Below are positions 4,926 to 59,419 of a DNA stretch of 59,469 nucleotides, in pieces (positions within the stretch are counted from its first letter, which is position 1; each line of letters begins with the position of its first letter). Under the pieces are notes generated by a model, which did no database searches, had not been told where the DNA came from, and saw only the letters and a program-made list of their open reading frames with translations. The DNA lies in IMG/VR virus record IMGVR_UViG_3300037400_001251; one strand, 5' to 3'. Origin of the DNA: an uncultured virus (IMG/VR IMGVR_UViG_3300037400_001251) (taxonomy: Duplodnaviria; Heunggongvirae; Uroviricota; Caudoviricetes). A program made the translations under genes and the position numbers.

Positions 4926-4933
4926 CTTATTTA

Positions 4934-4977
4934 AGGGCAGGCCTGATTATATTATGAAGTAAGGTCTGCCCTACCAC
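4934..4977 (+). terminator. Intergenic RNA hairpin followed by ACCAC (no U-tract)
   Basis: AGGGCAGGCCT 4934-4944 pairs with AGGTCTGCCCT 4962-4972 (one G-U), directly after the rpoB-C stop. Confidence 0.55.
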
Positions 4978-5023
4978 CATGAGAAATTAACTTATTAATA
5001 TGAATGGAGGCAAAACTTAAATT

Positions 5024-6502: not shown

Positions 6503-7129
6503 ATGTTAAAACAACCATTATTCATTGACGAACTTGCTAAAAACCCGGATTTACTTAACCAAATGAAAGGGCAAGTAGCTCAGAAGATATCAGAAATTAT
6601 TGATATCATGAGATTAAAAGAAGTAGTGCCTGAAGCACATATTGAAGAAACTCCTGAAAGAGTTGCTAAGATGTATATTGATGAACTATTTCATGGGTGT
6701 TATACTAATCCTCCTGATATGAAAATATTCAAAGATGATTATACCACACCTGTATTATCTACTAATATACAGATTAAGTCTACTTGTTCTCACCATGGAG
6801 TTCCATTCTATGGTAGAGCATCTATATATTATGTGCCAAATGAAATTACTGGTTTAAGTAAATTCTATAGAGTAAGTGATTATTTCAGTAGAAGACCTCA
6901 AATCCAAGAACGTCTTAATAGACAGATCTGTGATTATATATGGGATAAGCTAAAACCTCATTTAGTTATTGTAGCTATCAAATGTAAGCATATGTGCATT
7001 TGTCAAAGAGGTGTTAATGCAGATAACCCATATACAACTACCTATTATGTAAGAAGTGAACCTGAGTATGCTCCAGATAATCAACTTATTTGGAAGATAG
7101 TAGATACCATAGATGAAAGGATGATTTGA
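6503..7129 (+). CDS. folE: GTP cyclohydrolase I
   Basis: ETPERVAKMY, STCSHH (Zn ligands), GLSKFYR, RRPQIQERL, HMCICQRGV. Confidence 0.95.
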   Translation: MLKQPLFIDELAKNPDLLNQMKGQVAQKISEIIDIMRLKEVVPEAHIEETPERVAKMYIDELFHGCYTNPPDMKIFKDDYTTPVLSTNIQIKSTCSHHGVPFYGRASIYYVPNEITGLSKFYRVSDYFSRRPQIQERLNRQICDYIWDKLKPHLVIVAIKCKHMCICQRGVNADNPYTTTYYVRSEPEYAPDNQLIWKIVDTIDERMI

Positions 7130-14084: not shown

Positions 14085-15110
14085 ATGCAATTATTTCAAC
14101 AACAATATTCTTACAATAGATTTAGTATTAATTTTAATAAGGTCAAACCTGAAGATACATTTTCTAATAGAATGTATGTAAGACAAGAAGGACAATACCT
14201 TATATTAGATAATGAATGTTATCCTAGTAGATTTAAAGTATTTCAAGATAGTTATAATGAAACTGGCTTAATAGACTTTACTATATTATCTAGTGATGTA
14301 TCAGGCAATATATCTGATGATGATAGTATTAGATTTAATCTATGGGAAAACTCATATGATGACTATGTCTTACCAGGTAAGATAGAAAAGATTAATATTA
14401 ATACTGGTATGAGAAATGCCGAATATTATATTGATAAAGATCCTAGTATAGAAATCATTACCTTTGATAGTAAGCGTCAAAAAGATTTAGCTGCGATATT
14501 AACTGAAGGATTAGCTATAGATGATAACTTAAATAATCTATACCATAATTATTTAATGAACGAATTCTTTAAACAAGATTCAGAAACATTAGGTATTATC
14601 TTTGAAAGAACATCTATATCAGATATGTTATGCTATTTTATATGGTACTTTAGATATAGAAATGGTAAGAAGACTTATTTCAAACCTATGTGTTATGAAG
14701 GTATACCTTTAAATTCTAAGAAGAGAGATTGGGAATATTGGAATATTAGAGATATGGGAAAGATATATAACTTTACAGATGATTATCTAAGTATTAATAG
14801 ATTTATGGTCTATAGCAAATTAGAGCCAGATAAAATCTTTTTCTGTAAAGGTGAAGGAGAAGCTCAAGCATTATTAGCAGATCTTAAATTTAGTAATAGT
14901 ATTCCATTATTACCATGTGGATTAAGTGTCTTTGAAGATTACTATTATATGTGTATAGGTTACTATGAAATGAGAATGAATTATGTGGTAGAACCAGTTA
15001 TTCAATTATCTAAGCCTAGTAAATTGGTTAGAGAACTTAAAGACAGATTGCTAACTAGTTTGATACCATTAGTAGATAGGCAGACTAAATGCTATACATG
15101 GAATAGATAA
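14085..15110 (+). CDS. Hypothetical protein
   Basis: ATG 14085 follows the TTGAAAGGACAA SD (the ORF-track TTG start lies inside the SD). Contains SISDML, like the paralog-array motif. Confidence 0.75.
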   Translation: MQLFQQQYSYNRFSINFNKVKPEDTFSNRMYVRQEGQYLILDNECYPSRFKVFQDSYNETGLIDFTILSSDVSGNISDDDSIRFNLWENSYDDYVLPGKIEKININTGMRNAEYYIDKDPSIEIITFDSKRQKDLAAILTEGLAIDDNLNNLYHNYLMNEFFKQDSETLGIIFERTSISDMLCYFIWYFRYRNGKKTYFKPMCYEGIPLNSKKRDWEYWNIRDMGKIYNFTDDYLSINRFMVYSKLEPDKIFFCKGEGEAQALLADLKFSNSIPLLPCGLSVFEDYYYMCIGYYEMRMNYVVEPVIQLSKPSKLVRELKDRLLTSLIPLVDRQTKCYTWNR

Positions 15111-27881: not shown

Positions 27882-29114
27882 ATGTTACACAAAACTTTAC
27901 ACGCACTCTATTCTGTTAATCTTCCTGTTATGATATGGGGTAACCCTGGTGAAGGCAAAACCGAAATGGTTAAAAAGTTTGCTGAAAGAATGAACAAGAA
28001 AACTTATCTATTCTATGCAAATAAGTGTGAACCTAGTGATATAGGTGGCATTCCATTTACTGCAGATGTGTTTGATAAAAATGGAAACTTTGTAGAAAAG
28101 ACTGTTAAACATGCTAAGCCAGAATATATCAAACTATTTGAAAAAGAAGGAGATAGAAATATCTTATTCGTAGATGAATTAACCACTTGCAATCCATCTA
28201 TTCAAGGCGCTTTACTTACAGTTATATTAGATTGTAACTATGGTGATTTTCAAATAGCTAAAGATACATTTAGAATAGGTGCTGGTAACTATAATAATGT
28301 TATTGGAACCCATAAGGTTAATATGGCTTTGATGAATAGATTTGTCCATATATTCTGGAAGTCTAGACCTGAAAGATGGGCTTCTGGTTTTATAACTGGT
28401 TTTAGTAATTCAGAAAATGCCATTATCAATAATTATGATGGACAGCATCCAGATGAAGATTTTATTGAAACTTATTCTACTATAGTAGATAATAAGGGTA
28501 ATATACTTAATACAGATCATAAAGAAAAAGTAACTAAAGATTTATATTATAAACAAGCTATAGGTAAATTCGTTGTGGCTAATCCTCAATATTTTAGATT
28601 AGAAGAATTACCTACATTAACTGATGTTAAGAATGTAGCTTATCCTACTCCAAGAACTTGGGAATACGTTCATAAGATATTAACTAAACTAGATAGAAAT
28701 ACTACTGATAAGAATACTGGTGAAAACTTATTATCTGAATTAATTAAAGGTACAGTAGGTGAAGAAGCTGGTATTGCTTTTATGAAATATCTAGAATCTT
28801 ATAACTTCCATGGTATGAATATGCCATCTTATGTAGGCCATGAAGAAACATTCGTATTTCCTAAGAAAGCTGACCATAGATATATCGAAGCTAACTTTGA
28901 ATCTCTTATCTATTACTTCAAGAGTGAGCCTAAGAAGTATGAAAAACTAACTCTGTTTGTAAGTAATCTATTATTTGATATGGCATTCAAAGGTATATTA
29001 ATGAAGTACTTGGCTTTCTTAGTATCTACATTTAGTAGAGAATTAGGATATACTCATGTAGACTTCCAAGATAAATGTAAATGGTATGACTTAATTAGAT
29101 ACGCTAGATTATAA
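27882..29114 (+). CDS. MoxR-like AAA+ ATPase
   Basis: Walker A WGNPGEGKT, Walker B LFVDE, ALMNRF (Arg finger), PTPRTWE. Confidence 0.9.
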   Translation: MLHKTLHALYSVNLPVMIWGNPGEGKTEMVKKFAERMNKKTYLFYANKCEPSDIGGIPFTADVFDKNGNFVEKTVKHAKPEYIKLFEKEGDRNILFVDELTTCNPSIQGALLTVILDCNYGDFQIAKDTFRIGAGNYNNVIGTHKVNMALMNRFVHIFWKSRPERWASGFITGFSNSENAIINNYDGQHPDEDFIETYSTIVDNKGNILNTDHKEKVTKDLYYKQAIGKFVVANPQYFRLEELPTLTDVKNVAYPTPRTWEYVHKILTKLDRNTTDKNTGENLLSELIKGTVGEEAGIAFMKYLESYNFHGMNMPSYVGHEETFVFPKKADHRYIEANFESLIYYFKSEPKKYEKLTLFVSNLLFDMAFKGILMKYLAFLVSTFSRELGYTHVDFQDKCKWYDLIRYARL

Positions 29115-29129
29115 GGAGATGTAATAACT

Positions 29130-30350
29130 ATGTCTACCTATATAACTTTAGATGATAAGATACAAGAATGTCTTAATATAATAGATAGTCATTTTGCTTA
29201 TTATCTTCCATTTGTATTATATAGTAGGATAATGCCTAGTAAAGATAAAGCTATGACTACTATGTGTATTACTCCTCAATTAAAGATATTCTATAATGAG
29301 CAATTTGTAGATCTATTATCTATAGAAGAATTAAACTTTGTCTTATTACATGAATTTAGTCATATCATATATAATCATCATAATAGATTCAAACCTTATT
29401 TAAATAGATATCCTCATGTAACATTAAATACGGTAGCTGATTTAGAAATCAATAGTTTCTTAAAAGAAAAGGTTGCTCCTAATGAATGTTGCATTAAGAT
29501 ACCTAATAATACAGGTGTATTCCCAGAACAGTTAAACCTACCTAAGTTAAAAACATTTGATGAGTATCTAGAATTATTAGAACAATCTGGTCAGATGCAA
29601 AAGATACCTATGTTAGGACAAGGTGATCCATTAGGTAATGATTGTCAACATGAATCTAGTGATGGTGAAGATGTAGGCCAAGGTAATGATGACTTAACAG
29701 TAGAACAGTTAAGTAAACTATTAGAAGATTGTGAGAATGCTACAAAGCAAAGAGGTGCTCAATCTCTATTAGGTGGTACTCAAGTTATTAAGCCTAAAGT
29801 ATTACCTTATGACTGGAGTAAGATATTAGAAAATCTTATTACTGATGTTTATAAAACTGTAGCTGGTTATGACTATTATACCTATAGTAAAATCAGCAGG
29901 AGAAATGCTAGTAGTAATGATATTATCTTACCTACATATTATAGTCTAGAAGTAGATCTTAAGGTAGTTATTATCTTTGATGTTAGTGGTTCTATGTATG
30001 AAATCAAAGATAAAGTATTTGGTTTACTAATATCTTTAAAGGATTCATTAGGTGATGGCTTACATATAAGGATATTAGAAACAGATACAGAAGTCTTAAG
30101 AGATAGGGGAGATGTTACTATTCAAGATAATACTCCTATTGATATAGTAGATGGCGGTGGGACTGATATGACAGCTGGTTGGAATTATATCAAAAAGAAT
30201 AATATAGAGGCTGATCTTATCATATGTCTTACTGATGGTTATACACCTTATCCTGATCCTCCTATATACAAAGAAAAGTCTGTAATTATGTGGACAGATG
30301 AAGAACCTAATGATAATTGTACTTATAAGAATTATCATGTAAAGATCTAA
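29130..30350 (+). CDS. HEXXH metallopeptidase plus VWA domain protein (DUF2201-like MoxR partner)
   Basis: LLHEFSH, ADLEIN, MIDAS DVSGSM, GGGTD, LTDGY. Confidence 0.88.
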   Translation: MSTYITLDDKIQECLNIIDSHFAYYLPFVLYSRIMPSKDKAMTTMCITPQLKIFYNEQFVDLLSIEELNFVLLHEFSHIIYNHHNRFKPYLNRYPHVTLNTVADLEINSFLKEKVAPNECCIKIPNNTGVFPEQLNLPKLKTFDEYLELLEQSGQMQKIPMLGQGDPLGNDCQHESSDGEDVGQGNDDLTVEQLSKLLEDCENATKQRGAQSLLGGTQVIKPKVLPYDWSKILENLITDVYKTVAGYDYYTYSKISRRNASSNDIILPTYYSLEVDLKVVIIFDVSGSMYEIKDKVFGLLISLKDSLGDGLHIRILETDTEVLRDRGDVTIQDNTPIDIVDGGGTDMTAGWNYIKKNNIEADLIICLTDGYTPYPDPPIYKEKSVIMWTDEEPNDNCTYKNYHVKI

Positions 30351-46907: not shown

Positions 46908-47444
46908 TCATATTAATACCATTTCTCTAGTTAATTCATCAACACAAATATCAATAGTATCTTGAACATCTTCTTTTAGAAATCTATACATAATTCTAGC
47001 TAATGTTAAAGTAATATTATAACTAGCATAATCTACATCTCTATCAGATACTAATGACATTCTATTCTTACATACACATTCCATATCATATACATCATAC
47101 CAGTATTCTAAATTAAATAAGGTACTATTGCCTAAAGATATTTTTCTACCATATTCATTTTTAAAGATTCTAATTTTAGTATTCTTAGTAGGCTTATATC
47201 TCCATATTAAGATATTGCTAGACTTCCATTTACATTTAGCTTTGACACCATCTTTAATAGCATTGTTATAATTAGATAGAATGAGTTGTAAGATAATAGG
47301 ATTCATATTAACAATACTATCAAAGTCATAGTCATTCTGTAAAATATGGAAATCAGATTTAGATAAAAGATTACTTTTAGAACTAGGTTTAATGATAGGT
47401 TCAAATTCTTCATCTTCGATAAAATTGATATATCTATATCTCAT
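46908..47444 (-). CDS. Hypothetical protein, paralog-array member
   Basis: LSKSDFHILQND, KISLG, LEYWYD. ATG 47444 follows TTTGAAAGGA. Confidence 0.72.
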   Translation of the reverse strand: MRYRYINFIEDEEFEPIIKPSSKSNLLSKSDFHILQNDYDFDSIVNMNPIILQLILSNYNNAIKDGVKAKCKWKSSNILIWRYKPTKNTKIRIFKNEYGRKISLGNSTLFNLEYWYDVYDMECVCKNRMSLVSDRDVDYASYNITLTLARIMYRFLKEDVQDTIDICVDELTREMVLI

Positions 47445-47456
47445 TTGATCTTTTCC

Positions 47457-47746
47457 TTTCAAAGATTATATAGTCTAATCAAACCCTGTCGATTTTTAGA
47501 CTATTTAAGTAAACATCTATATAGGCCTTTAAATGATGTTTTCTATTTTTACTTTCAAATTTGTCTAATACCAGCTATGCGAAAATAGGTATTTCAAGAA
47601 AAAGTAAGTAATGTCATTATAGGCCTTTTAGCAATATATTACTTTTAAAATAGATAAGATTTGTAAATCTATTTTGAAAATACCAAAAAATGAGATTAGG
47701 TCTACAAGGTATTTTAAGCTTAATGTCGGGCAGGGTTTCTTTGAAA
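47457..47746. ncRNA. Candidate structured non-coding element (multi-hairpin, pseudoknot, palindromic loops)
   Basis: No ORF in the track. Closing 9-bp stem, six internal hairpins, and long-range pairing AAACCCTGTC/GGCAGGGTTT. G-U pairs slightly favour the + sense. Confidence 0.5.
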
Positions 47747-47762
47747 TTTATCGTACAATGAT

Positions 47763-48002
47763 TTACCATGAAATGCCTGTTTCAGACGTATCTAATTTCC
47801 AGGATAAGAATTCGTCCTCTAATAGGTTATAATAAGAAGTTAGTTCATGGTTACCAGATTTCCAAGCATTCTTTATATGCCAGTTAAATAATTTCATAAG
47901 ATTAGTGTAGTTCTTAAATAATATCACTGAACCATATTAAGAAAAGTTATCATAGTAGAATCTCATATCTAGGAAGGTATCTGATTTATATTTATCAACC
48001 AT
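47763..48002 (-). pseudogene. 79-codon ORF interrupted by one in-frame TAA
   Basis: MVDKYKSDTFLDMRFYYDNFS*YGSVILFKNYTNLMKLFNWHIK...GISW, with the stop at 47937-47939. Confidence 0.45.
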
Positions 48003-48009
48003 GTTTCAT

Positions 48010-52121: not shown

Positions 52122-53699
52122 TTAAGCGTTGGCTAACATACCATCTATTTGATATTTAAGTTTCTTTAAAGTATTTACATATTTAACTGTATCAGAATCA
52201 ATATTATTAATATACTTAGAACTACCAGAATTATTCATCTTATTAGCTTCAGCATTTTCAATTAATTCCATTACACCTTTAATACAATAGTTACTTAAAC
52301 TAACAACAGGTGCTAACATAGAAACTATAAAAGCAGCTGGTCCTTCTTCAGTAAAACCATCTTGGGCTACTTTGATAAGACATACGCCTATTAAAGCAGG
52401 TGCTAACAATATACCTAAGAAAGCAACTTTACCTATAGCATTAAGAACACTATTAAAACTAAAGTTAGAAACCATTTCTTTTAATGAAGAAATAACTTGT
52501 CCAGTTACACCAACTAATAGGCATACAACTATACTAGCGGCTATTAATGTAGCACCTATAATAGTATAACCTTTCTTTAAGTTTTCTATATTAGTGCCAG
52601 CTAATTGACTAGCAGCATCAGCTACCATTAACTTGTCCATTAAAGTATTCTTAGCTTGCATCTTTTTAAGTAAGCCAATGTACTTAGCTAAATCTTTATA
52701 GTTATCACTATTCAAAGCGTTTTCAGTTAATTCTTTAACTTTGGCAATACTAGCTTTTTCTCTCCAACCAGCTATTAATGGAGCAGATACTAAAGCAGCC
52801 ACAGTTACAATAACTCCACTAATTATCTTAGCTTTACCACCGCCAATAGCTTTAACAGTTTCTTGAACAGCAGTCTTAGCTAATTCTCCACCCTTCTTTA
52901 CAGCTTCTGTTCCTTTCTTTACAGCTTCAGCAGTTTTCTGAGTTGTTTCAGCTGCTTTTTCTACTACTTTAACATCTTTAGTTACTTCAGCTATTTTCTT
53001 TACATTTTCTACAGCTTTCTTTACTTCAGGAACTTTAGAAGCAGCAGGAGCTACCTTAACATACTTATCTATTAAGTTACCCTGTCTAACTATCATAGGA
53101 TAAAACTTAGCTGGGTCTTTAGCTACATCTGTAGCCACCTTAGCTGTTTCAGCTACATTCTTAGCAGCTACATTAATAGTTGTAGTTAAAACGTCTTTTG
53201 CCTTTTTAGCTTGCTCAGCTTTCCATTGAGTTGCCGATGCAACTTGACTTAAAGCTTTCTGAACATTAATTTCTTTAAGTGCTTTAGACTCTTTGTATAT
53301 ACTATCTATAAGAGTAACTATTTGAGTATTGCCGCCTATTAGTATATTCTTAGCATTAAAGGTTTTTTTAGCTGCGTTAGCTAGTTTATCATCCTTTATA
53401 AAGATTGCACATAATTTTAGTATATCTTGTTTTACATCTTTAGTAATAAGTTCTGCGCCACTTATGCCGGTTTTCATAACTTTATCTATGCACTTGGTTG
53501 CTTCAGCTAAGAATTTAGGATTTGGCCTTCCATCTTTAGTGAACGGAACAGATGTAAACATATCTGAATACCAATTCAAGTTCTCCGCAAATCCAAATAC
53601 TATTTTTATCAGATCTTTGTTGTCTTTATACTTATTAAGAATTCTAACTACATCACTAAGATTAGGATTCAAAACACTTTCTAACAATGATTTTTGCAT
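52122..53699 (-). CDS. Multi-TM putative virion internal/ejection protein, tag at the C-terminus
   Basis: Ala/Lys/Val-rich helical middle, three hydrophobic segments, C-terminal KYVNTLKKLKYQIDGML. Close paralog of 56725..58344. Confidence 0.6.
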   Translation of the reverse strand: MQKSLLESVLNPNLSDVVRILNKYKDNKDLIKIVFGFAENLNWYSDMFTSVPFTKDGRPNPKFLAEATKCIDKVMKTGISGAELITKDVKQDILKLCAIFIKDDKLANAAKKTFNAKNILIGGNTQIVTLIDSIYKESKALKEINVQKALSQVASATQWKAEQAKKAKDVLTTTINVAAKNVAETAKVATDVAKDPAKFYPMIVRQGNLIDKYVKVAPAASKVPEVKKAVENVKKIAEVTKDVKVVEKAAETTQKTAEAVKKGTEAVKKGGELAKTAVQETVKAIGGGKAKIISGVIVTVAALVSAPLIAGWREKASIAKVKELTENALNSDNYKDLAKYIGLLKKMQAKNTLMDKLMVADAASQLAGTNIENLKKGYTIIGATLIAASIVVCLLVGVTGQVISSLKEMVSNFSFNSVLNAIGKVAFLGILLAPALIGVCLIKVAQDGFTEEGPAAFIVSMLAPVVSLSNYCIKGVMELIENAEANKMNNSGSSKYINNIDSDTVKYVNTLKKLKYQIDGMLANA

Positions 53700-53765
53700 T
53701 ATATAATTCTCCTTTAAGAATATTTAAATTAAGCTAAAATTTCCATATGTCTTCCAATAATATTT

Positions 53766-54689
53766 TTACTTAGATACTTTAATCTTCTTAATTAAGTCAT
53801 TAGCAAATCTACCTATAAGTAAAGTAGTCTTAGCTAATTCTTGATTAATAGGACCGAGTTTCTTTATAAGTTCAGCTCCTTGATTATTTTCTTCAAAATT
53901 AAATGAAGCCACTATAATTAATATGATACCAAATACAGCTGGTAATGCCAATATACCTATACCTGCGAATTTACCTAAAGCTTGTAAAGCTAATTTAAAA
54001 TTCTTTTCTTGTATAGCATCTATGATATCAGCAAATGGTTTAGTCAATAATCCTAATGCTAAGCATAGAATAGCTGATGTTAATATTAAAGCTATACCTA
54101 AAGCTATATAACCAGTCTTGATATCTGATATAAAATTACTAGCCATCTTTACAGCATCACTATTGTAAGAAGCTATCTTAAACCATTTCTTTTCTTGTAT
54201 ATTCTTTAATGCTTTCATACATTTAGAAAACGAAGAATAGTCTTTAGCACTCATAGCTAAATCAATACTAAACTTGGTGTCTTCAATAGCATACTTACCA
54301 AACAAGTCAATCTTCTTCCATAACTTTTTAACACCAACATAAGCTATTATACTGTATATAATCTTAGGAACTGCATCTAACCAATCTGAGGCAGTATTTA
54401 CTACAGCAGGACCATAGTCTTCTATTTCATTGGCTAATTGCCTAGTGCTTTTAATTACTTGGCCCATATCACTACTATCTTCCCATGCTTCATATAACTC
54501 ACTAGTTTTCTTAAAGAATCTTTTCTTATCTTTTTCTATATTATCACGTAAAATTTTGGTAGCTCCATCTTCGATGTCTTTCTTTAAGTCATTAATGCCT
54601 TGAACAGTCTTTCCTATGGTATCATTAATATCTTCTTTTAAAATACCTTGTAAAGCTTTAAGATTTTTAATGTAGATATTCTTATTCAT
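53766..54689 (-). CDS. Multi-TM putative virion internal/ejection protein
   Basis: MNKNIYIKNLKALQGILKE and the shared KTGY..LG..LI..S...C / GK.AG.GILALPAVFG domain. Confidence 0.6.
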   Translation of the reverse strand: MNKNIYIKNLKALQGILKEDINDTIGKTVQGINDLKKDIEDGATKILRDNIEKDKKRFFKKTSELYEAWEDSSDMGQVIKSTRQLANEIEDYGPAVVNTASDWLDAVPKIIYSIIAYVGVKKLWKKIDLFGKYAIEDTKFSIDLAMSAKDYSSFSKCMKALKNIQEKKWFKIASYNSDAVKMASNFISDIKTGYIALGIALILTSAILCLALGLLTKPFADIIDAIQEKNFKLALQALGKFAGIGILALPAVFGIILIIVASFNFEENNQGAELIKKLGPINQELAKTTLLIGRFANDLIKKIKVSK

Positions 54690-54707
54690 TATAATTAAAC
54701 TCTCCTA

Positions 54708-55580
54708 TCATCTTTTAAGTTTTTCTAAAACTGAAGCAATAAGTTTATCTAATTCATTTCTAAACTTATTAATTAAAGCTAGATTAAGATTTAATTTACT
54801 TAATATCTTAGTAAATATAGACTCTTCATTAAAGCCACCCATAGCTGCCATAATGAAAATGAAGCCTACTACTGCAGGTAACGCCAGTATACTTAGTACA
54901 CCTAATTTCATTACATCAGACATGAATCCTTTAAGATCCTTATTCTTGATATGTTCTATAAAATTTAAACCAGTTCCTTGTTGGCATAATCCGTATATAG
55001 TAAATAGTATTAAACTTACTAATGTTAAAAATACACCTATTACATACCAAGAACGTTTAATACTAGTCATAGCTTCATCAGCCATTTGAGAAGCCTTTAA
55101 GTCAAATCTATTATTAGGTATCTTTGAAGAAGTAGCATTTAATCTAGCATATAGTTTGCTTAGCATATTAATATTAATAGCATTCTTAGCTAATTCTACA
55201 TCTTCAGCAGTAGATGCTATAACTCTTTTTCTATAATCTAGACATATCTTTCCTAAGTCATTCCATAACTTATTATAATCAATATTAACAATTTGATATA
55301 TAATTTGAGCTGGAACAGTTACAGCATGAATACCGGTCCAATCAGTTAACCAATATGTAGTACTATCTACACCAAATTCTTCTATTAGTACAAATATTTT
55401 CCAAAGACTTCTATCGCCATTATAGATATCTTTTACATTAGATATGGTCCAGCCAAAAGGCATAGTATGCTTAGATATAAAATCTCCGATACCTTCTTGT
55501 AATCTAATCTGACTATCTATTATAGACTTAAGCTGTTTAAGGTTAAGTATATATTGCTCTTTAGTAATACTGTTAGACAT
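54708..55580 (-). CDS. Multi-TM putative virion internal/ejection protein
   Basis: QYILNLKQLKSIIDSQIRLQEG and the shared domain ILALPAVVG...GGFNEE. Confidence 0.6.
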   Translation of the reverse strand: MSNSITKEQYILNLKQLKSIIDSQIRLQEGIGDFISKHTMPFGWTISNVKDIYNGDRSLWKIFVLIEEFGVDSTTYWLTDWTGIHAVTVPAQIIYQIVNIDYNKLWNDLGKICLDYRKRVIASTAEDVELAKNAININMLSKLYARLNATSSKIPNNRFDLKASQMADEAMTSIKRSWYVIGVFLTLVSLILFTIYGLCQQGTGLNFIEHIKNKDLKGFMSDVMKLGVLSILALPAVVGFIFIMAAMGGFNEESIFTKILSKLNLNLALINKFRNELDKLIASVLEKLKR

Positions 55581-55643
55581 AACGAAATACTATTCTCCTT
55601 CTGAATATTAGTGATTATTAATTTATGCCTTTCAATAGAAGTG

Positions 55644-55692
55644 CCACGTGGTTAAAGCCCCTTCTAAGTATTTCTACAAAGAAGGGGTTTAA
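55644..55692 (-). terminator. Hairpin followed by CCACGTGG
   Basis: CCCCTTCT / AGAAGGGG core, related to the 51.4 and 52.1 kb hairpins. Confidence 0.6.
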
Positions 55693-55740
55693 TTTATAAT
55701 CTTAATTTAAACTTAAAAGGAAAACTTATATAGTATTAAG

Positions 55741-56688
55741 TTATTTTACCTTTTTAGTAGTTCTAGTAATTCTAGCAGGTTGAGCTTGTCCGCCTTGAGC
55801 AGCTGCTTCTTGAGCTAATTCTAATATAGATTTAACTGCTTGATTAGCTAATTGAACTACAGGAGCTAAAGCTTCAAGAATGTCAGCAGCTATACCTTGT
55901 TCTGGGAAACCATTTATACCTACAAATATTAGGCAGCCTCCTATAACTGCTGGTACAGCTAATACGCCAAAAACAGCTATCTTTGCCAAACCGGCAAGTA
56001 TACCTTTAATATTTAAAGATTTTATGGCTTCGATTAATGGACCAAACGTATCTACAGTTCCAGCAAATATTACGCATAATATAGCAGAAGCTATACATAA
56101 TGCAGCACCTACAGTTATATATGATTTCTTAAAAGCTTCTACATTACTAGATGCTAAATCTCTAGCACTCTGAGCAGTTGTAATCTTTGACCATAAAGAA
56201 TTATTGGTAGCAACTTTCTTCAAAGCATTAATATACTTAGTTGTATCTTGAAAGGTTTTGGCATCCATTGCTTTACCAGTAAGTTCTTTAACATTATTAA
56301 CAGATAATTTTTCTCTTAAAGAACCAAGTAATGGAGCAGTTATTAAAGTAACTAAAGCAATACCAACAGCAGCTATAGGTGTCTTATATTGAGCAATTCT
56401 AGAAAGTTTTTGCCAGAATACTGACGGAAGTTTTATAACATCTCCGCTCTTAGATGCAGTTTCTCTGGCCCTATTAAACAACTTAAGATACAATTTTTGA
56501 TAATCAGCTGTATTGCCTTCAGCTTTATATTTTAAAAGCATACCTATTTCTTCGACAGATGCTTTTAATTTCTGAGCCAATTTAGTACCTTCTGCTGTCA
56601 TTAACTCATTAGCTTCCATTAACATGATATTTATCTGATCAGATAAATTCTTTAATTTAGCAATATAAAGGTCTTTCTTCATATTCAT
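55741..56688 (-). CDS. Multi-TM putative virion internal/ejection protein
   Basis: LYIAKLKNLSDQINIMLMEA and the shared domain WSKITTAQSARD...LAVPAVIG...GFPEQG. Confidence 0.6.
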   Translation of the reverse strand: MNMKKDLYIAKLKNLSDQINIMLMEANELMTAEGTKLAQKLKASVEEIGMLLKYKAEGNTADYQKLYLKLFNRARETASKSGDVIKLPSVFWQKLSRIAQYKTPIAAVGIALVTLITAPLLGSLREKLSVNNVKELTGKAMDAKTFQDTTKYINALKKVATNNSLWSKITTAQSARDLASSNVEAFKKSYITVGAALCIASAILCVIFAGTVDTFGPLIEAIKSLNIKGILAGLAKIAVFGVLAVPAVIGGCLIFVGINGFPEQGIAADILEALAPVVQLANQAVKSILELAQEAAAQGGQAQPARITRTTKKVK

Positions 56689-56724
56689 ATTAAAAAGGAC
56701 TCCTTTAAATTATTAAGTTATAAC

Positions 56725-58344
56725 TTAAGATATTTTTTCATTAGCTAACATTTTGTCTAATTGATATTTCATAGACTTAAGAGTACTAATGTATTTATCT
56801 TTGTCACTAGAATTATTATTCATCTTATTAGCTTCAGCATTAGCTATTAATTCCATTACGCCTTTAATACAATAGTTACATAAACTAATTACAGGTGTTA
56901 ATAATGAAACTATGTAAGCAGCTGGTCCTTCTTCATTGAAACCATCTTGGGCTACTTTAATAAGACATATACCAACTAAGGCAGGTGCTAATAAGATACC
57001 TAATACAGCTAATTTACCTATAGCACCTAATATACTATTGAAAGAAGGATTAGAAATCATTTCTTTTAAAGTACCAATAACATTAGATGCTACACCTACC
57101 AATAGGCACAGTACTACACTAGCAGCTATCATAGTAGCACCACATATAGTATAGCCTTTCTTGATATCTGCCAAGTTACCTTCAGCCAATTTACTAGCGG
57201 CATCAGCTACCATTAACTTATCCATAAAGGTATTTTTAGCTTGCATCTTTTTAAGTAAGCCAATGTACTTAGCTAAGTCTTGATAATTTTTACTATTCAA
57301 AGCATTTTCAGTTAATTCTTTAACTTTAGCAATACTAGCTTTTTCTCTCCAACCAGTTATCAACGGAGCAGATACCAATGCTACTACAGCTACAACTACA
57401 CTAGTAATTATTTTAGTCTTGCCACTAGCTATAGCTTTAACAGTTTCTTGAGTTGCTTTCTTTACAACATTAGCACCTTGTTCTACTGCCTTTTCAGCTA
57501 CCTTTGCTTTTTCAGATACTTGACTTACACCTTTAGCAGCTTCGGTACCCTTTTCAACTGCATCTTTAGCAGCCTTAACTTCTTTACCTAAATCAGCTAC
57601 ACTCTTAAGATTATCGGCTACCTTCTTAACTTCTGAAACAGATTTAGCTGCAGGAGTTGCTTCAACGCATTTCTTAAATAATGTAGCTTGTTTAGTAACC
57701 ATGCTATGAAAATCAGATGGTTTCTTAGTTAAATCAATAGCGAACCTAGGTGCTTGTGAAACATTTTGAACGGCAGCTTTTACAGTTGTATTTACAGATT
57801 CAACTATCTTCTTAGCATCTTCAGTTTTATTAACTATATTGGTTGCAGTATTAGCAAGTATTTCTTGAGTTTTAATTTTTTTGAACTCTAGAGCTCTTTT
57901 GTAACAATCACGTATATAATAATACATAGCTGGAGTATATGTAGCATCTGCATCAAAAAGTTTTCCTTGTTGCTCTAAATCATACATACCTTCAAAAATA
58001 TCTCTTTTACTTAAATATGGGGCTATCTTTTTAGCTACATCAATACATTTCTTTATATCTTTACTGTCAAGCCCTTCAAAAGGATTAAACCATTTACTAA
58101 AGCCAGGTTTAGAGCTCTTACAATACCAAATGAATTTACTAAGAAACATCTCTAAGTTTCTTACAAATTTTACGTTAGGTTTTCCATTTTTCAATGGAGC
58201 ATATGGAATTATATCAGTTATGTTCACAGGCCAAACACTTGAATCTGCTGGCGACACACAATAACTTAACTCAACCACTAAACGTTTACCGACATCTGAC
58301 AAACCGCTTGTATCAATAATCTTAAGTATTTCTTCAGCAGTCAT
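56725..58344 (-). CDS. Multi-TM putative virion internal/ejection protein, tag at the C-terminus
   Basis: Close paralog of 52122..53699. C-terminal KYISTLKSMKYQLDKML. Confidence 0.6.
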   Translation of the reverse strand: MTAEEILKIIDTSGLSDVGKRLVVELSYCVSPADSSVWPVNITDIIPYAPLKNGKPNVKFVRNLEMFLSKFIWYCKSSKPGFSKWFNPFEGLDSKDIKKCIDVAKKIAPYLSKRDIFEGMYDLEQQGKLFDADATYTPAMYYYIRDCYKRALEFKKIKTQEILANTATNIVNKTEDAKKIVESVNTTVKAAVQNVSQAPRFAIDLTKKPSDFHSMVTKQATLFKKCVEATPAAKSVSEVKKVADNLKSVADLGKEVKAAKDAVEKGTEAAKGVSQVSEKAKVAEKAVEQGANVVKKATQETVKAIASGKTKIITSVVVAVVALVSAPLITGWREKASIAKVKELTENALNSKNYQDLAKYIGLLKKMQAKNTFMDKLMVADAASKLAEGNLADIKKGYTICGATMIAASVVLCLLVGVASNVIGTLKEMISNPSFNSILGAIGKLAVLGILLAPALVGICLIKVAQDGFNEEGPAAYIVSLLTPVISLCNYCIKGVMELIANAEANKMNNNSSDKDKYISTLKSMKYQLDKMLANEKIS

Positions 58345-58360
58345 ATATAAATCCCTTCTT

Positions 58361-59419
58361 TTAAACTAAACTTTCCATATATCTTCCAATAATATTATTA
58401 GATAATTGTACTACTGGAGAGAATATAGCTAAAACGGCAGGAGCTGCACCTTTTTCAGGGAACCCTGTCATACCAACAAATATCATAGCTACTCCTATAA
58501 CAGCAGGTATTGCTAATGCAGTTATAGCTACAATTTTTCCTATACCAACAAGAATACCTTTCCAATCTAATTTCTTTACAGCATCTATTAAAGGTTTAAA
58601 TGTATCTACATTAAAAGAGAAAGCAATTAAACTAATAATAGAACATAGAATCATACATATACCAATAGTAATATAGCCTTTCTTAAAAGTATTTAAACTA
58701 CTATCAGATATATCTCTAGCTTCTTGAGCTGTAGTTAATTTAGACCAGAAAGAATCATTATCTCTTATCTTACGTAAAGAAGTAATATACTTTTGAAAGT
58801 CTTTATATTTACCACTTTCTTTGGCAGATTTAACATTAGCCAATGCTTCAGCTATAGACTTATTTAAAGCAACTTTTCTACCTATTAAAGCACTTAAAGC
58901 AACAGCTACAATAATTACGATAGCTATAGGAGCACCAGTGCTTCCACCTACAGCAGCTGCTACACCACTAGCTGCGCTTTTAATTCCACCAATAATAGCA
59001 GTTCTAGCAGCTAATCCTTTTGCAGCGCCTTTCATAACTACTTCAGCTACACCAGGAGAAAGTTTAGAAGCGTATGTTAAAATAGAACCTAAAGCAGAAT
59101 TACCTAATCTTGGTATCTGGTATAGATACAATATAATTCTTTTGTAAAACGTAGGATTTCTACTTAGTAATCTAGCTATAGCTGCAGAACGTCTAGCAGC
59201 TTCTTTAGATACTTGTTCTCCACCTTTAGCTAAATAAGTTAACACTTTCGTAATATTATAATCAGTATTCCATATGTTGTAGGCTTGACTAAGAATACCA
59301 AATACACCAACAGCAGCAGCACTACTAGGAGGTATTTTTGGCTGGTCTGCTTCTAATAACATCTCATTAATATTACTTTGAATATATCTGAGATTATTAA
59401 TATATACATTTTTCTCCAT
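58361..59419 (-). CDS. Multi-TM putative virion internal/ejection protein
   Basis: MEKNVYINNLRYIQSNINEMLLEA, a Gly/Ala-rich hydrophobic stretch, and the shared domain WSKLTTAQEARD...LAIPAVIG...GFPEKG. Confidence 0.6.
   Translation of the reverse strand: MEKNVYINNLRYIQSNINEMLLEADQPKIPPSSAAAVGVFGILSQAYNIWNTDYNITKVLTYLAKGGEQVSKEAARRSAAIARLLSRNPTFYKRIILYLYQIPRLGNSALGSILTYASKLSPGVAEVVMKGAAKGLAARTAIIGGIKSAASGVAAAVGGSTGAPIAIVIIVAVALSALIGRKVALNKSIAEALANVKSAKESGKYKDFQKYITSLRKIRDNDSFWSKLTTAQEARDISDSSLNTFKKGYITIGICMILCSIISLIAFSFNVDTFKPLIDAVKKLDWKGILVGIGKIVAITALAIPAVIGVAMIFVGMTGFPEKGAAPAVLAIFSPVVQLSNNIIGRYMESLV

Follow-up and report, generated by a model that had tools for sequence, protein, structure and literature searches.

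A conserved and repeated intergenic element of an AR9-like jumbo phage from the cattle gut is a candidate structured RNA

The locus and its neighbouring genes

The window analysed here, a stretch of 59,469 nucleotides, is the right half of a 121-kb virus record (hereafter, G000) that is estimated to be 45% complete and has a GC content of 28.5%. The record encodes capsid, protease and sheath genes together with split RNA-polymerase subunits, and its capsid protein is 19–28% identical to the capsid proteins of large phages that include AR9/PBS1 and PALS_2. The sequencing runs with the best match to G000 are bovine gut metagenomes. The genome that carries the element described below belongs to a cattle-gut jumbo phage resembling AR9.

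An earlier note, made from the letters of this DNA, had delimited a non-coding element at 47457..47746 composed of six hairpins (A–F), a closing stem and a long-range pairing of loop A. An element is indeed found there, about 2.3 kb away from the portal-like/head genes; the proposed boundaries, however, stop about 26 nt too early, as the sequence at 47747-47772 is strongly conserved too. The features of the locus are collected in Table 1. No conserved reading frame is present: the minus-strand ATG frame spans 50 codons here and is different in other copies, and a conserved leader peptide was ruled out for either strand because the frames differ between copies. A tRNA/tmRNA scan of the element, which is not near tRNAs, returned none, and no clear plus-strand promoter or terminator was found within it.

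Table 1. Coordinates (window numbering) and properties of the element, its predicted parts and the flanking genes
Feature	Position	Strand	Remarks
Full-length element	47457..47772	+ (antisense to flanking genes)	Probable RNA; 91% identical L131 homologue, contigs of 4/4 runs
Closing stem	47457..47465 (5' arm), 47738-46 (3' arm)	+	Perfect in this genome only
Hairpin A	47470..47504	+	9 bp, loop 47479-47495; invariant in L131
P2 5' strand (loop-A strand of long-range helix/pseudoknot)	47481..47490	+	Best partner of 47729-38
Hairpin B	47511..47541	+	Palindrome AGGCCT 47523-28 in loop; stem and loop invariant in L131
Hairpin C	47549..47607	+	Outer stem invariant; inner stem 47567-72/47588-93 with one mismatch in L131
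Hairpin D	47607..47643	+	Stem invariant, one G-U on +; loop AGGCCT 47621-26 not conserved
Hairpins E and F	47647..47715	+	Variable; neither stem holds in short copies
Repeated ~123-nt core	47656..47772	+	Near-invariant blocks ~47660-80 and 47729-70, variable middle
Invariant GGCAGGGTTT, P2 3' strand	47729..47738	+	Identical in 6/6 copies, partnered in all on +
TATATAAT box 47472-65 and generic SD TTGAAAGGA 47462-54	47454..47472	-	Of gene 46908-47444
Gene 46908..47444	46908..47444	-	Downstream hypothetical gene; no family match
Broken hybrid ORF (pseudogene)	47763..48002	-	In-frame TAA 47939-37; deletion 47867-79 fused two genes

The element is bordered by gene 46908-47444 and by a broken hybrid ORF, the stop codon of which falls in the edge of the repeated core. 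L131, a single metagenome contig that carries the complete element at the same locus, was the sole full-length homologue compared. There the counterpart of this ORF is a pair of intact genes, 201 and 222 codons long, and the window therefore carries a deletion that fused them. On the other side, TTGAAAGGA is a generic SD in this phage (35 copies) and is directly preceded by the TATATAAT box, which is enriched in spacers (12 versus 2.4) and resembles the AR9 early consensus as given in the available part of PMC5312081; we regard the box as a putative promoter. The earlier note had offered as an alternative a switch in which the closing stem sequesters this SD on the minus strand. The proposal fails because the stem is specific to this genome, with 3/9 pairs lost in L131 and a variant at 47739/47740 of its 3' arm in 4/4 runs examined, and because the SD is generic and has the TATATAAT box directly before it.

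Several further features of these genomes are recorded as separate observations. Hairpins whose loop contains TATATTAT lie between genes at window 4926-5023 and at G000:12955-13049, 59165-59296, and look like the AR9 early-promoter consensus, as far as it is covered by the accessible part of PMC5312081, placed inside a stem. A CACG(T/C) motif, possibly a late promoter, stands immediately after the T-tract in hairpins that resemble terminators (G000:13018, window 36697(-), L162:12872, 4337 and L164:14658, and by eye in L143 and L146). In the tRNA region of the record G001, two paralogous non-coding units of ~135 nt (L164:12302-12436 and 14943-15070; 73.5% identical) stand beside tRNA-Tyr(ATA) and tRNA-Ile(AAT); they have no Rfam match, and the one that was folded gave a z of 0.27. 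An ORF-free gap directly after an RNA-polymerase beta-prime ORF, outside the window (G000:47135-47549), is likewise without an Rfam match and, judged by eye, has the look of a group I intron. G000 also carries FolE, QueD-like and two QueC-like genes of the deazaguanine pathway, a Tad8-like anti-Thoeris match and a Thg1-like gene (window 6503-7129; G000:8156-10120, 27952-29721, 47550-48008, 54433-55611), as well as an intein within a beta-prime ORF. Window 52122-59419 is occupied by paralogous ORFs in tandem, which belong to no known family and have DNA stretches of 66–82% identity in common.

Stems, folding and constraint

All the helices listed by the earlier note pair at the positions given for them (closing stem 9/9, A 9/9, B 7/7, C 7/7, E 9/9 and F 8/8). 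On the plus strand, stem D is made of seven Watson-Crick pairs and one G-U pair, and the pairing of loop A with 47729-38 (P2) of nine Watson-Crick pairs and one U-G pair; base 47607 is common to C and D. The sequence TATAGGCCTTT starts at 47520 in loop B and at 47618 in loop D, and AGGTCT at 47698 in loop F, as had been described. An 11-nt direct repeat is borderline, being matched in 16 of 300 shuffles. Stems are in excess: eight perfect stems of at least 8 bp are observed versus 2.2 in shuffles, a number reached by 1 of 300, and 19 stems of at least 7 bp versus 7.2, reached by none of 300. Tiles of the genome contain on average 2.1 perfect stems of at least 8 bp, and 3 of 418, tiles over the element included, reach the eight of the element.

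The comparison of folding energy with shuffled sequences, which had been proposed as a check, favours the element on both strands (z -2.72 on plus, -3.38 on minus), yet some GC-matched windows of the genome are as stable (17 of 152 on plus and 12 of 152 on minus), which places it in the top 8–11%. For full-length L131 the z-scores are only -1.6 and -1.4. In the nested ensemble the probability of hairpins B and D is close to zero because the two AGGCCT hexamers pair with each other within one molecule (p 0.97). With A–D imposed, the remainder has a folding energy of -50.1, to which the P2 duplex contributes another -14.2 if no loop penalty is counted. The minimum-energy fold reaches -59.7; the pseudoknotted model is therefore competitive.

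L131 is 91% identical to the window over 47441-47898. Within the element there are 25 differences in 290 positions, versus 23 in 116 four-fold sites of the flanking genes. Across A, P2, B, C and D, a subset chosen post hoc, none of 81 positions is changed where 7.0 changes are expected (P 1.8e-4), and in the left part as a whole (47457-646) 1 of 92 helix positions is changed versus 5.3 expected (P 0.006). No such depletion is seen for all the helices of the earlier note taken together (11/144 versus 12.4 expected) or for the minimum-energy fold (16/172 versus 14.8). The predicted fold of A, B, C and D with the loop-A pairing is thus the one that accounts better for the L131 substitutions than the minimum-energy fold. 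Outside this set, stem E acquires two G-U pairs and two breaks in L131, and stem F is held by two G-U pairs on the plus strand. Covariation among homologues, a further check that had been suggested, gave nothing in favour of the helices: with only two full-length sequences to compare, none of the 77 pairs had changed on both sides in a compensatory way.

Contigs from all four of the runs examined (of 24 listed) span the element wholly or for the most part, and in two of them 554 extra letters lie between it and gene 46908-47444 (joint 47416/47441). The occurrence in 4/4 other populations, the stem excess and the constraint relative to L131 bear out the view that this is a real, conserved non-coding element. 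From the alignment, the sequence of the element is shown to be under constraint, with the predicted helices A–D and the pairing of loop A with 47729-38 kept.

A repeated core and its invariant G-rich strand

The 3' part of the element contains a core that recurs at G000:36547-36669 (copy 2) and after recA in L003/G001, L130 and L132. The units are 123–124 nt long with sharp ends, show 77–85% identity between loci, and the short copies are without hairpins B and D. A model built from six cores had true matches only in G000 (two) and G001 (one) of five records, and nothing convincing was returned from three more distant records, all of them fragments. Of the matches to search patterns, 1/2, 3/5 (L131 among these three) and 0/1 were true, a further pattern had no match, and two more gave one true match each, at the same locus, of 9 and of at least 121. 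Alignment of RecA yielded six loci, including two new full-length relatives, and the capsid protein search one locus; searching through the portal-like ORF returned no relatives, and through the 46908 gene no locus. As a separate observation, a distant relative carries, inserted antisense directly after recA, a gene of the TnpB family (PF01385) that has matching hairpins at its ends (L147:5450-6810).

The core contains an invariant G-rich strand, GGCAGGGUUU. On the plus strand its best partner in the long copies (2/2) is loop A, at -16.4 kcal/mol. In the short copies the partner is a segment 36–37 nt upstream, at -18.4 kcal/mol in copy 2 and at -11.5 in the three recA copies, where it ranks best in L003 and L130 and second best in L132; unrelated segments pair with the G-rich strand at -10.9, barely weaker than the -11.5 partner. 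G/U-rich strands pair loosely. On the minus strand, the recA copies lack this nearby partner or have only a weak one. Differences between the partner strands mostly keep pairing through G-U pairs that are valid only on the plus strand, and the same holds for the G-U pairs of P2, D, F (two) and E (two). Because most of the informative G-U pairs work only there, the plus strand is assigned, provisionally, as the RNA strand.

Known systems, alternatives and the preferred reading

A search of Rfam 15, which includes ARRPOF, ROOL, GOLLD, riboswitches and ribozymes, returned no hits at the gathering score, and in E-value mode there was no match within 47461-47772 or on the other copies of the core; the element thus appears undescribed, as the earlier note had supposed. 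A match to snoR27 (47846-936, E 0.001, below threshold) was rejected, as it falls in the coding remnant. BLAST against phages and plasmids gave only short chance matches. By-eye likenesses to CRISPR repeats, bridge/TIGR guides, the FMN riboswitch and P7 of group I introns have no Rfam or Pfam support and were discarded. An rRNA-antisense phage RNA was ruled out: 12- and 11-nt words pairing with E. coli 23S rRNA are not above chance, and across six 23S sequences complementarity is not in excess, the observed counts being reached by 29–47 of 300 shuffles and 94–139 of 748 genome windows. No description was found in the literature searched; the motifs are absent from six of the supplementary files of PMC10690425, and the element may be among the 10,006 candidates of that viral-RNA screen.

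The strongest competitor, although in our estimate an unlikely one, is a cis-acting cassette on the minus (gene) strand, in which terminator, processing or leader hairpins would be combined with a promoter and SD and would serve as a recombination substrate in the exchange of genes. It would be akin to the PeSL cassettes of T4-type phages, which are described in the available parts of PMC2839356 and PMC4122927 as repeated intergenic stem-loop units of ~100 bp. The present core is likewise a repeated intergenic unit of about that size in gene-variable regions, with gene gain and loss at its edge, here at three loci: its orientation relative to the flanking genes is the same at all three, a 190-codon gene is missing exactly from its end in L132 versus L003, and indels also flank the window copy. 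On the minus strand, copy 2 reads as an A-tract, hairpin and T-tract that looks like a terminator by eye, its CATTTTT resembling the terminator tails of this phage. A rival hairpin on the same sense strand of the core covaries weakly (4 of 500 shuffles; 3–4 independent sequences), and the TATATAAT box and SD close the element. Against these points, the core itself contains neither an SD nor a sigma-70-like promoter at constant spacing, no terminator was called over it, the stem closing over the SD is not conserved, most informative G-U pairs are on the plus strand, and only two copies occur in 121 kb. Unlike the T4-type phages with their PeSL units, this phage encodes its own RNA polymerases and has a long form that adds four conserved hairpins. 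No PeSL-like cassettes were found described for this phage group in the literature searched.

An improbable alternative places the repeat at the level of DNA, either as a site of protein binding or recombination or as a small mobile unit that is not autonomous. Its invariant blocks would then be DNA sites, and the perfect stems would have arisen by template switching in AT-rich DNA. The sharp ends at unrelated loci speak for it, as does the absence of better-than-shuffled folding of the core alone in five of six copies; copy 2 is the exception (z -3.84 on the plus strand of the core, -2.0 on the other). Clustered lineage-specific changes also make new perfect stems, namely the closing stem, a helix in L131 and a stem in copy 2. 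In the ends of IS200/IS605 elements and the omega-RNA of TnpB, a 5' loop pairs at long range with a 3' strand. The element shares with them this pairing and a sharp-ended unit, and the post-recA site of the distant relative holds TnpB. The ends of that TnpB element are, however, dissimilar to the core (16/16 alignments versus shuffles, one element compared), and there is no variable guide at a fixed end. Moreover, no TnpB match occurs in G000 or G001, the records of which are 45% and 21% complete, and the 135 G000 proteins scanned include no transposase, RT or recombinase family. The constraint on A–D and the one-strand G-U bias are left unexplained.

The earlier note had suggested multimerisation; that copies of the RNA assemble into dimers or rings by way of palindromic AGGCCU loops we consider very unlikely. 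HIV-1 DIS and phi29 pRNA oligomerise through loop-loop pairing, and the element resembles them in having a hexameric palindrome in a hairpin loop and in its distance of ~2.3 kb from portal-like/head genes; its loops are, however, 17–21 nt long, the second palindrome is not conserved, and the core recurs far from head genes. What speaks for the idea is loop B, which is palindromic and invariant in 2/2 full copies, with a self-duplex of -10.3 kcal/mol. Loop D is palindromic in one of two: it has four changes in L131, including 47622 G>A, and reads AAGCCT there in place of AGGCCT, weakening the loop D self-duplex from -10.1 to -3.4 kcal/mol and loop B–loop D pairing on the plus strand from -11.1 to -5.7. 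A published criterion for multimer loops, in the part of 10.1101/2024.12.08.627333 available, is switching from palindrome to palindrome; loop D loses its palindrome outright. The AGGTCT of loop F is non-palindromic and varies at 47700, the two hexamers can pair intramolecularly, the short copies are without B and D, and AGGCCT occurs 19 times in G000, several times in intergenic hairpins.

That the stems arose by chance in an ordinary AT-rich spacer, a caveat of the earlier note in keeping with the modest rank of the folding energy among GC-matched windows and the missing compensatory pair, is hardly credible given the stem excess, conservation above four-fold sites and the repeated core, which largely refute it.

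The reading we prefer, held at slightly less than an even chance, is a self-folding, protein-binding RNA of the plus strand with long and short paralogues, in which the G-rich strand would be kept paired. The element would be a phage gene for a non-coding RNA of ~300 nt, running antisense to the operon around it and having two short paralogues. The RNA would fold on itself, and GGCAGGGUUU would always be paired: in the long form with loop A, giving a long-range pseudoknot, and in the short forms with the strand 36–37 nt upstream. The two invariant A/U-rich blocks on either side would then be left free as a recognition surface. Its most likely role would be that of a scaffold or decoy that binds a protein, either a phage or a host factor; the core would be the minimal domain for binding and A–D an accessory domain, and loops B and D, if touching, would do so within one molecule. 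The element most likely encodes a knotted (pseudoknotted) RNA, and we infer the transcription, strand, ends, promoter and partner of this RNA. A bolder and rather improbable version is a modular family of jumbo-phage RNAs, in which a 123-nt protein-binding domain would have spread, as a self-contained unit, over several loci, the invariant G-rich strand would swap partner between a local helix (short form) and a pseudoknot of 250-nt range (long form), and the palindromic loop B could dimerise the long form only.

Among known RNAs, a close likeness is to ARRPOF, ROOL, GOLLD and OLE. In the accessible parts of the sources, ARRPOF is a 255-nt RNA of a Fusobacterium plasmid that forms a dimer (PMC12990946), ROOL is phage-borne and rumen-named, and the bridges of OLE and GOLLD include a GGCC-type palindromic loop (PMC12990946; 10.1101/2024.12.08.627333); pRNA is mentioned beside these ornate RNAs (PMC12990946). 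As far as those sources go, the element is similar in its ARRPOF-like size, multiple hairpins with a predicted long-range pseudoknot and GGCC-type palindromic loop. It differs in having no Rfam match, no palindrome switch and no covariation in two full-length sequences, in not being near tRNAs, and in having short paralogues without the loop domain.

The element is thus an undescribed candidate structured RNA with an unusual arrangement of long and short paralogues, the reach of which is so far narrow, covering a single clade of close relatives. Were it instead a cassette of the mRNA strand or of DNA, it would drive gene exchange in the manner of a PeSL. Jumbo phages with their own RNA polymerases have many unexplained non-coding gaps, and here the long and short paralogues, with an invariant strand that has different partners, would point to a minimal functional domain and offer a ready pull-down bait.
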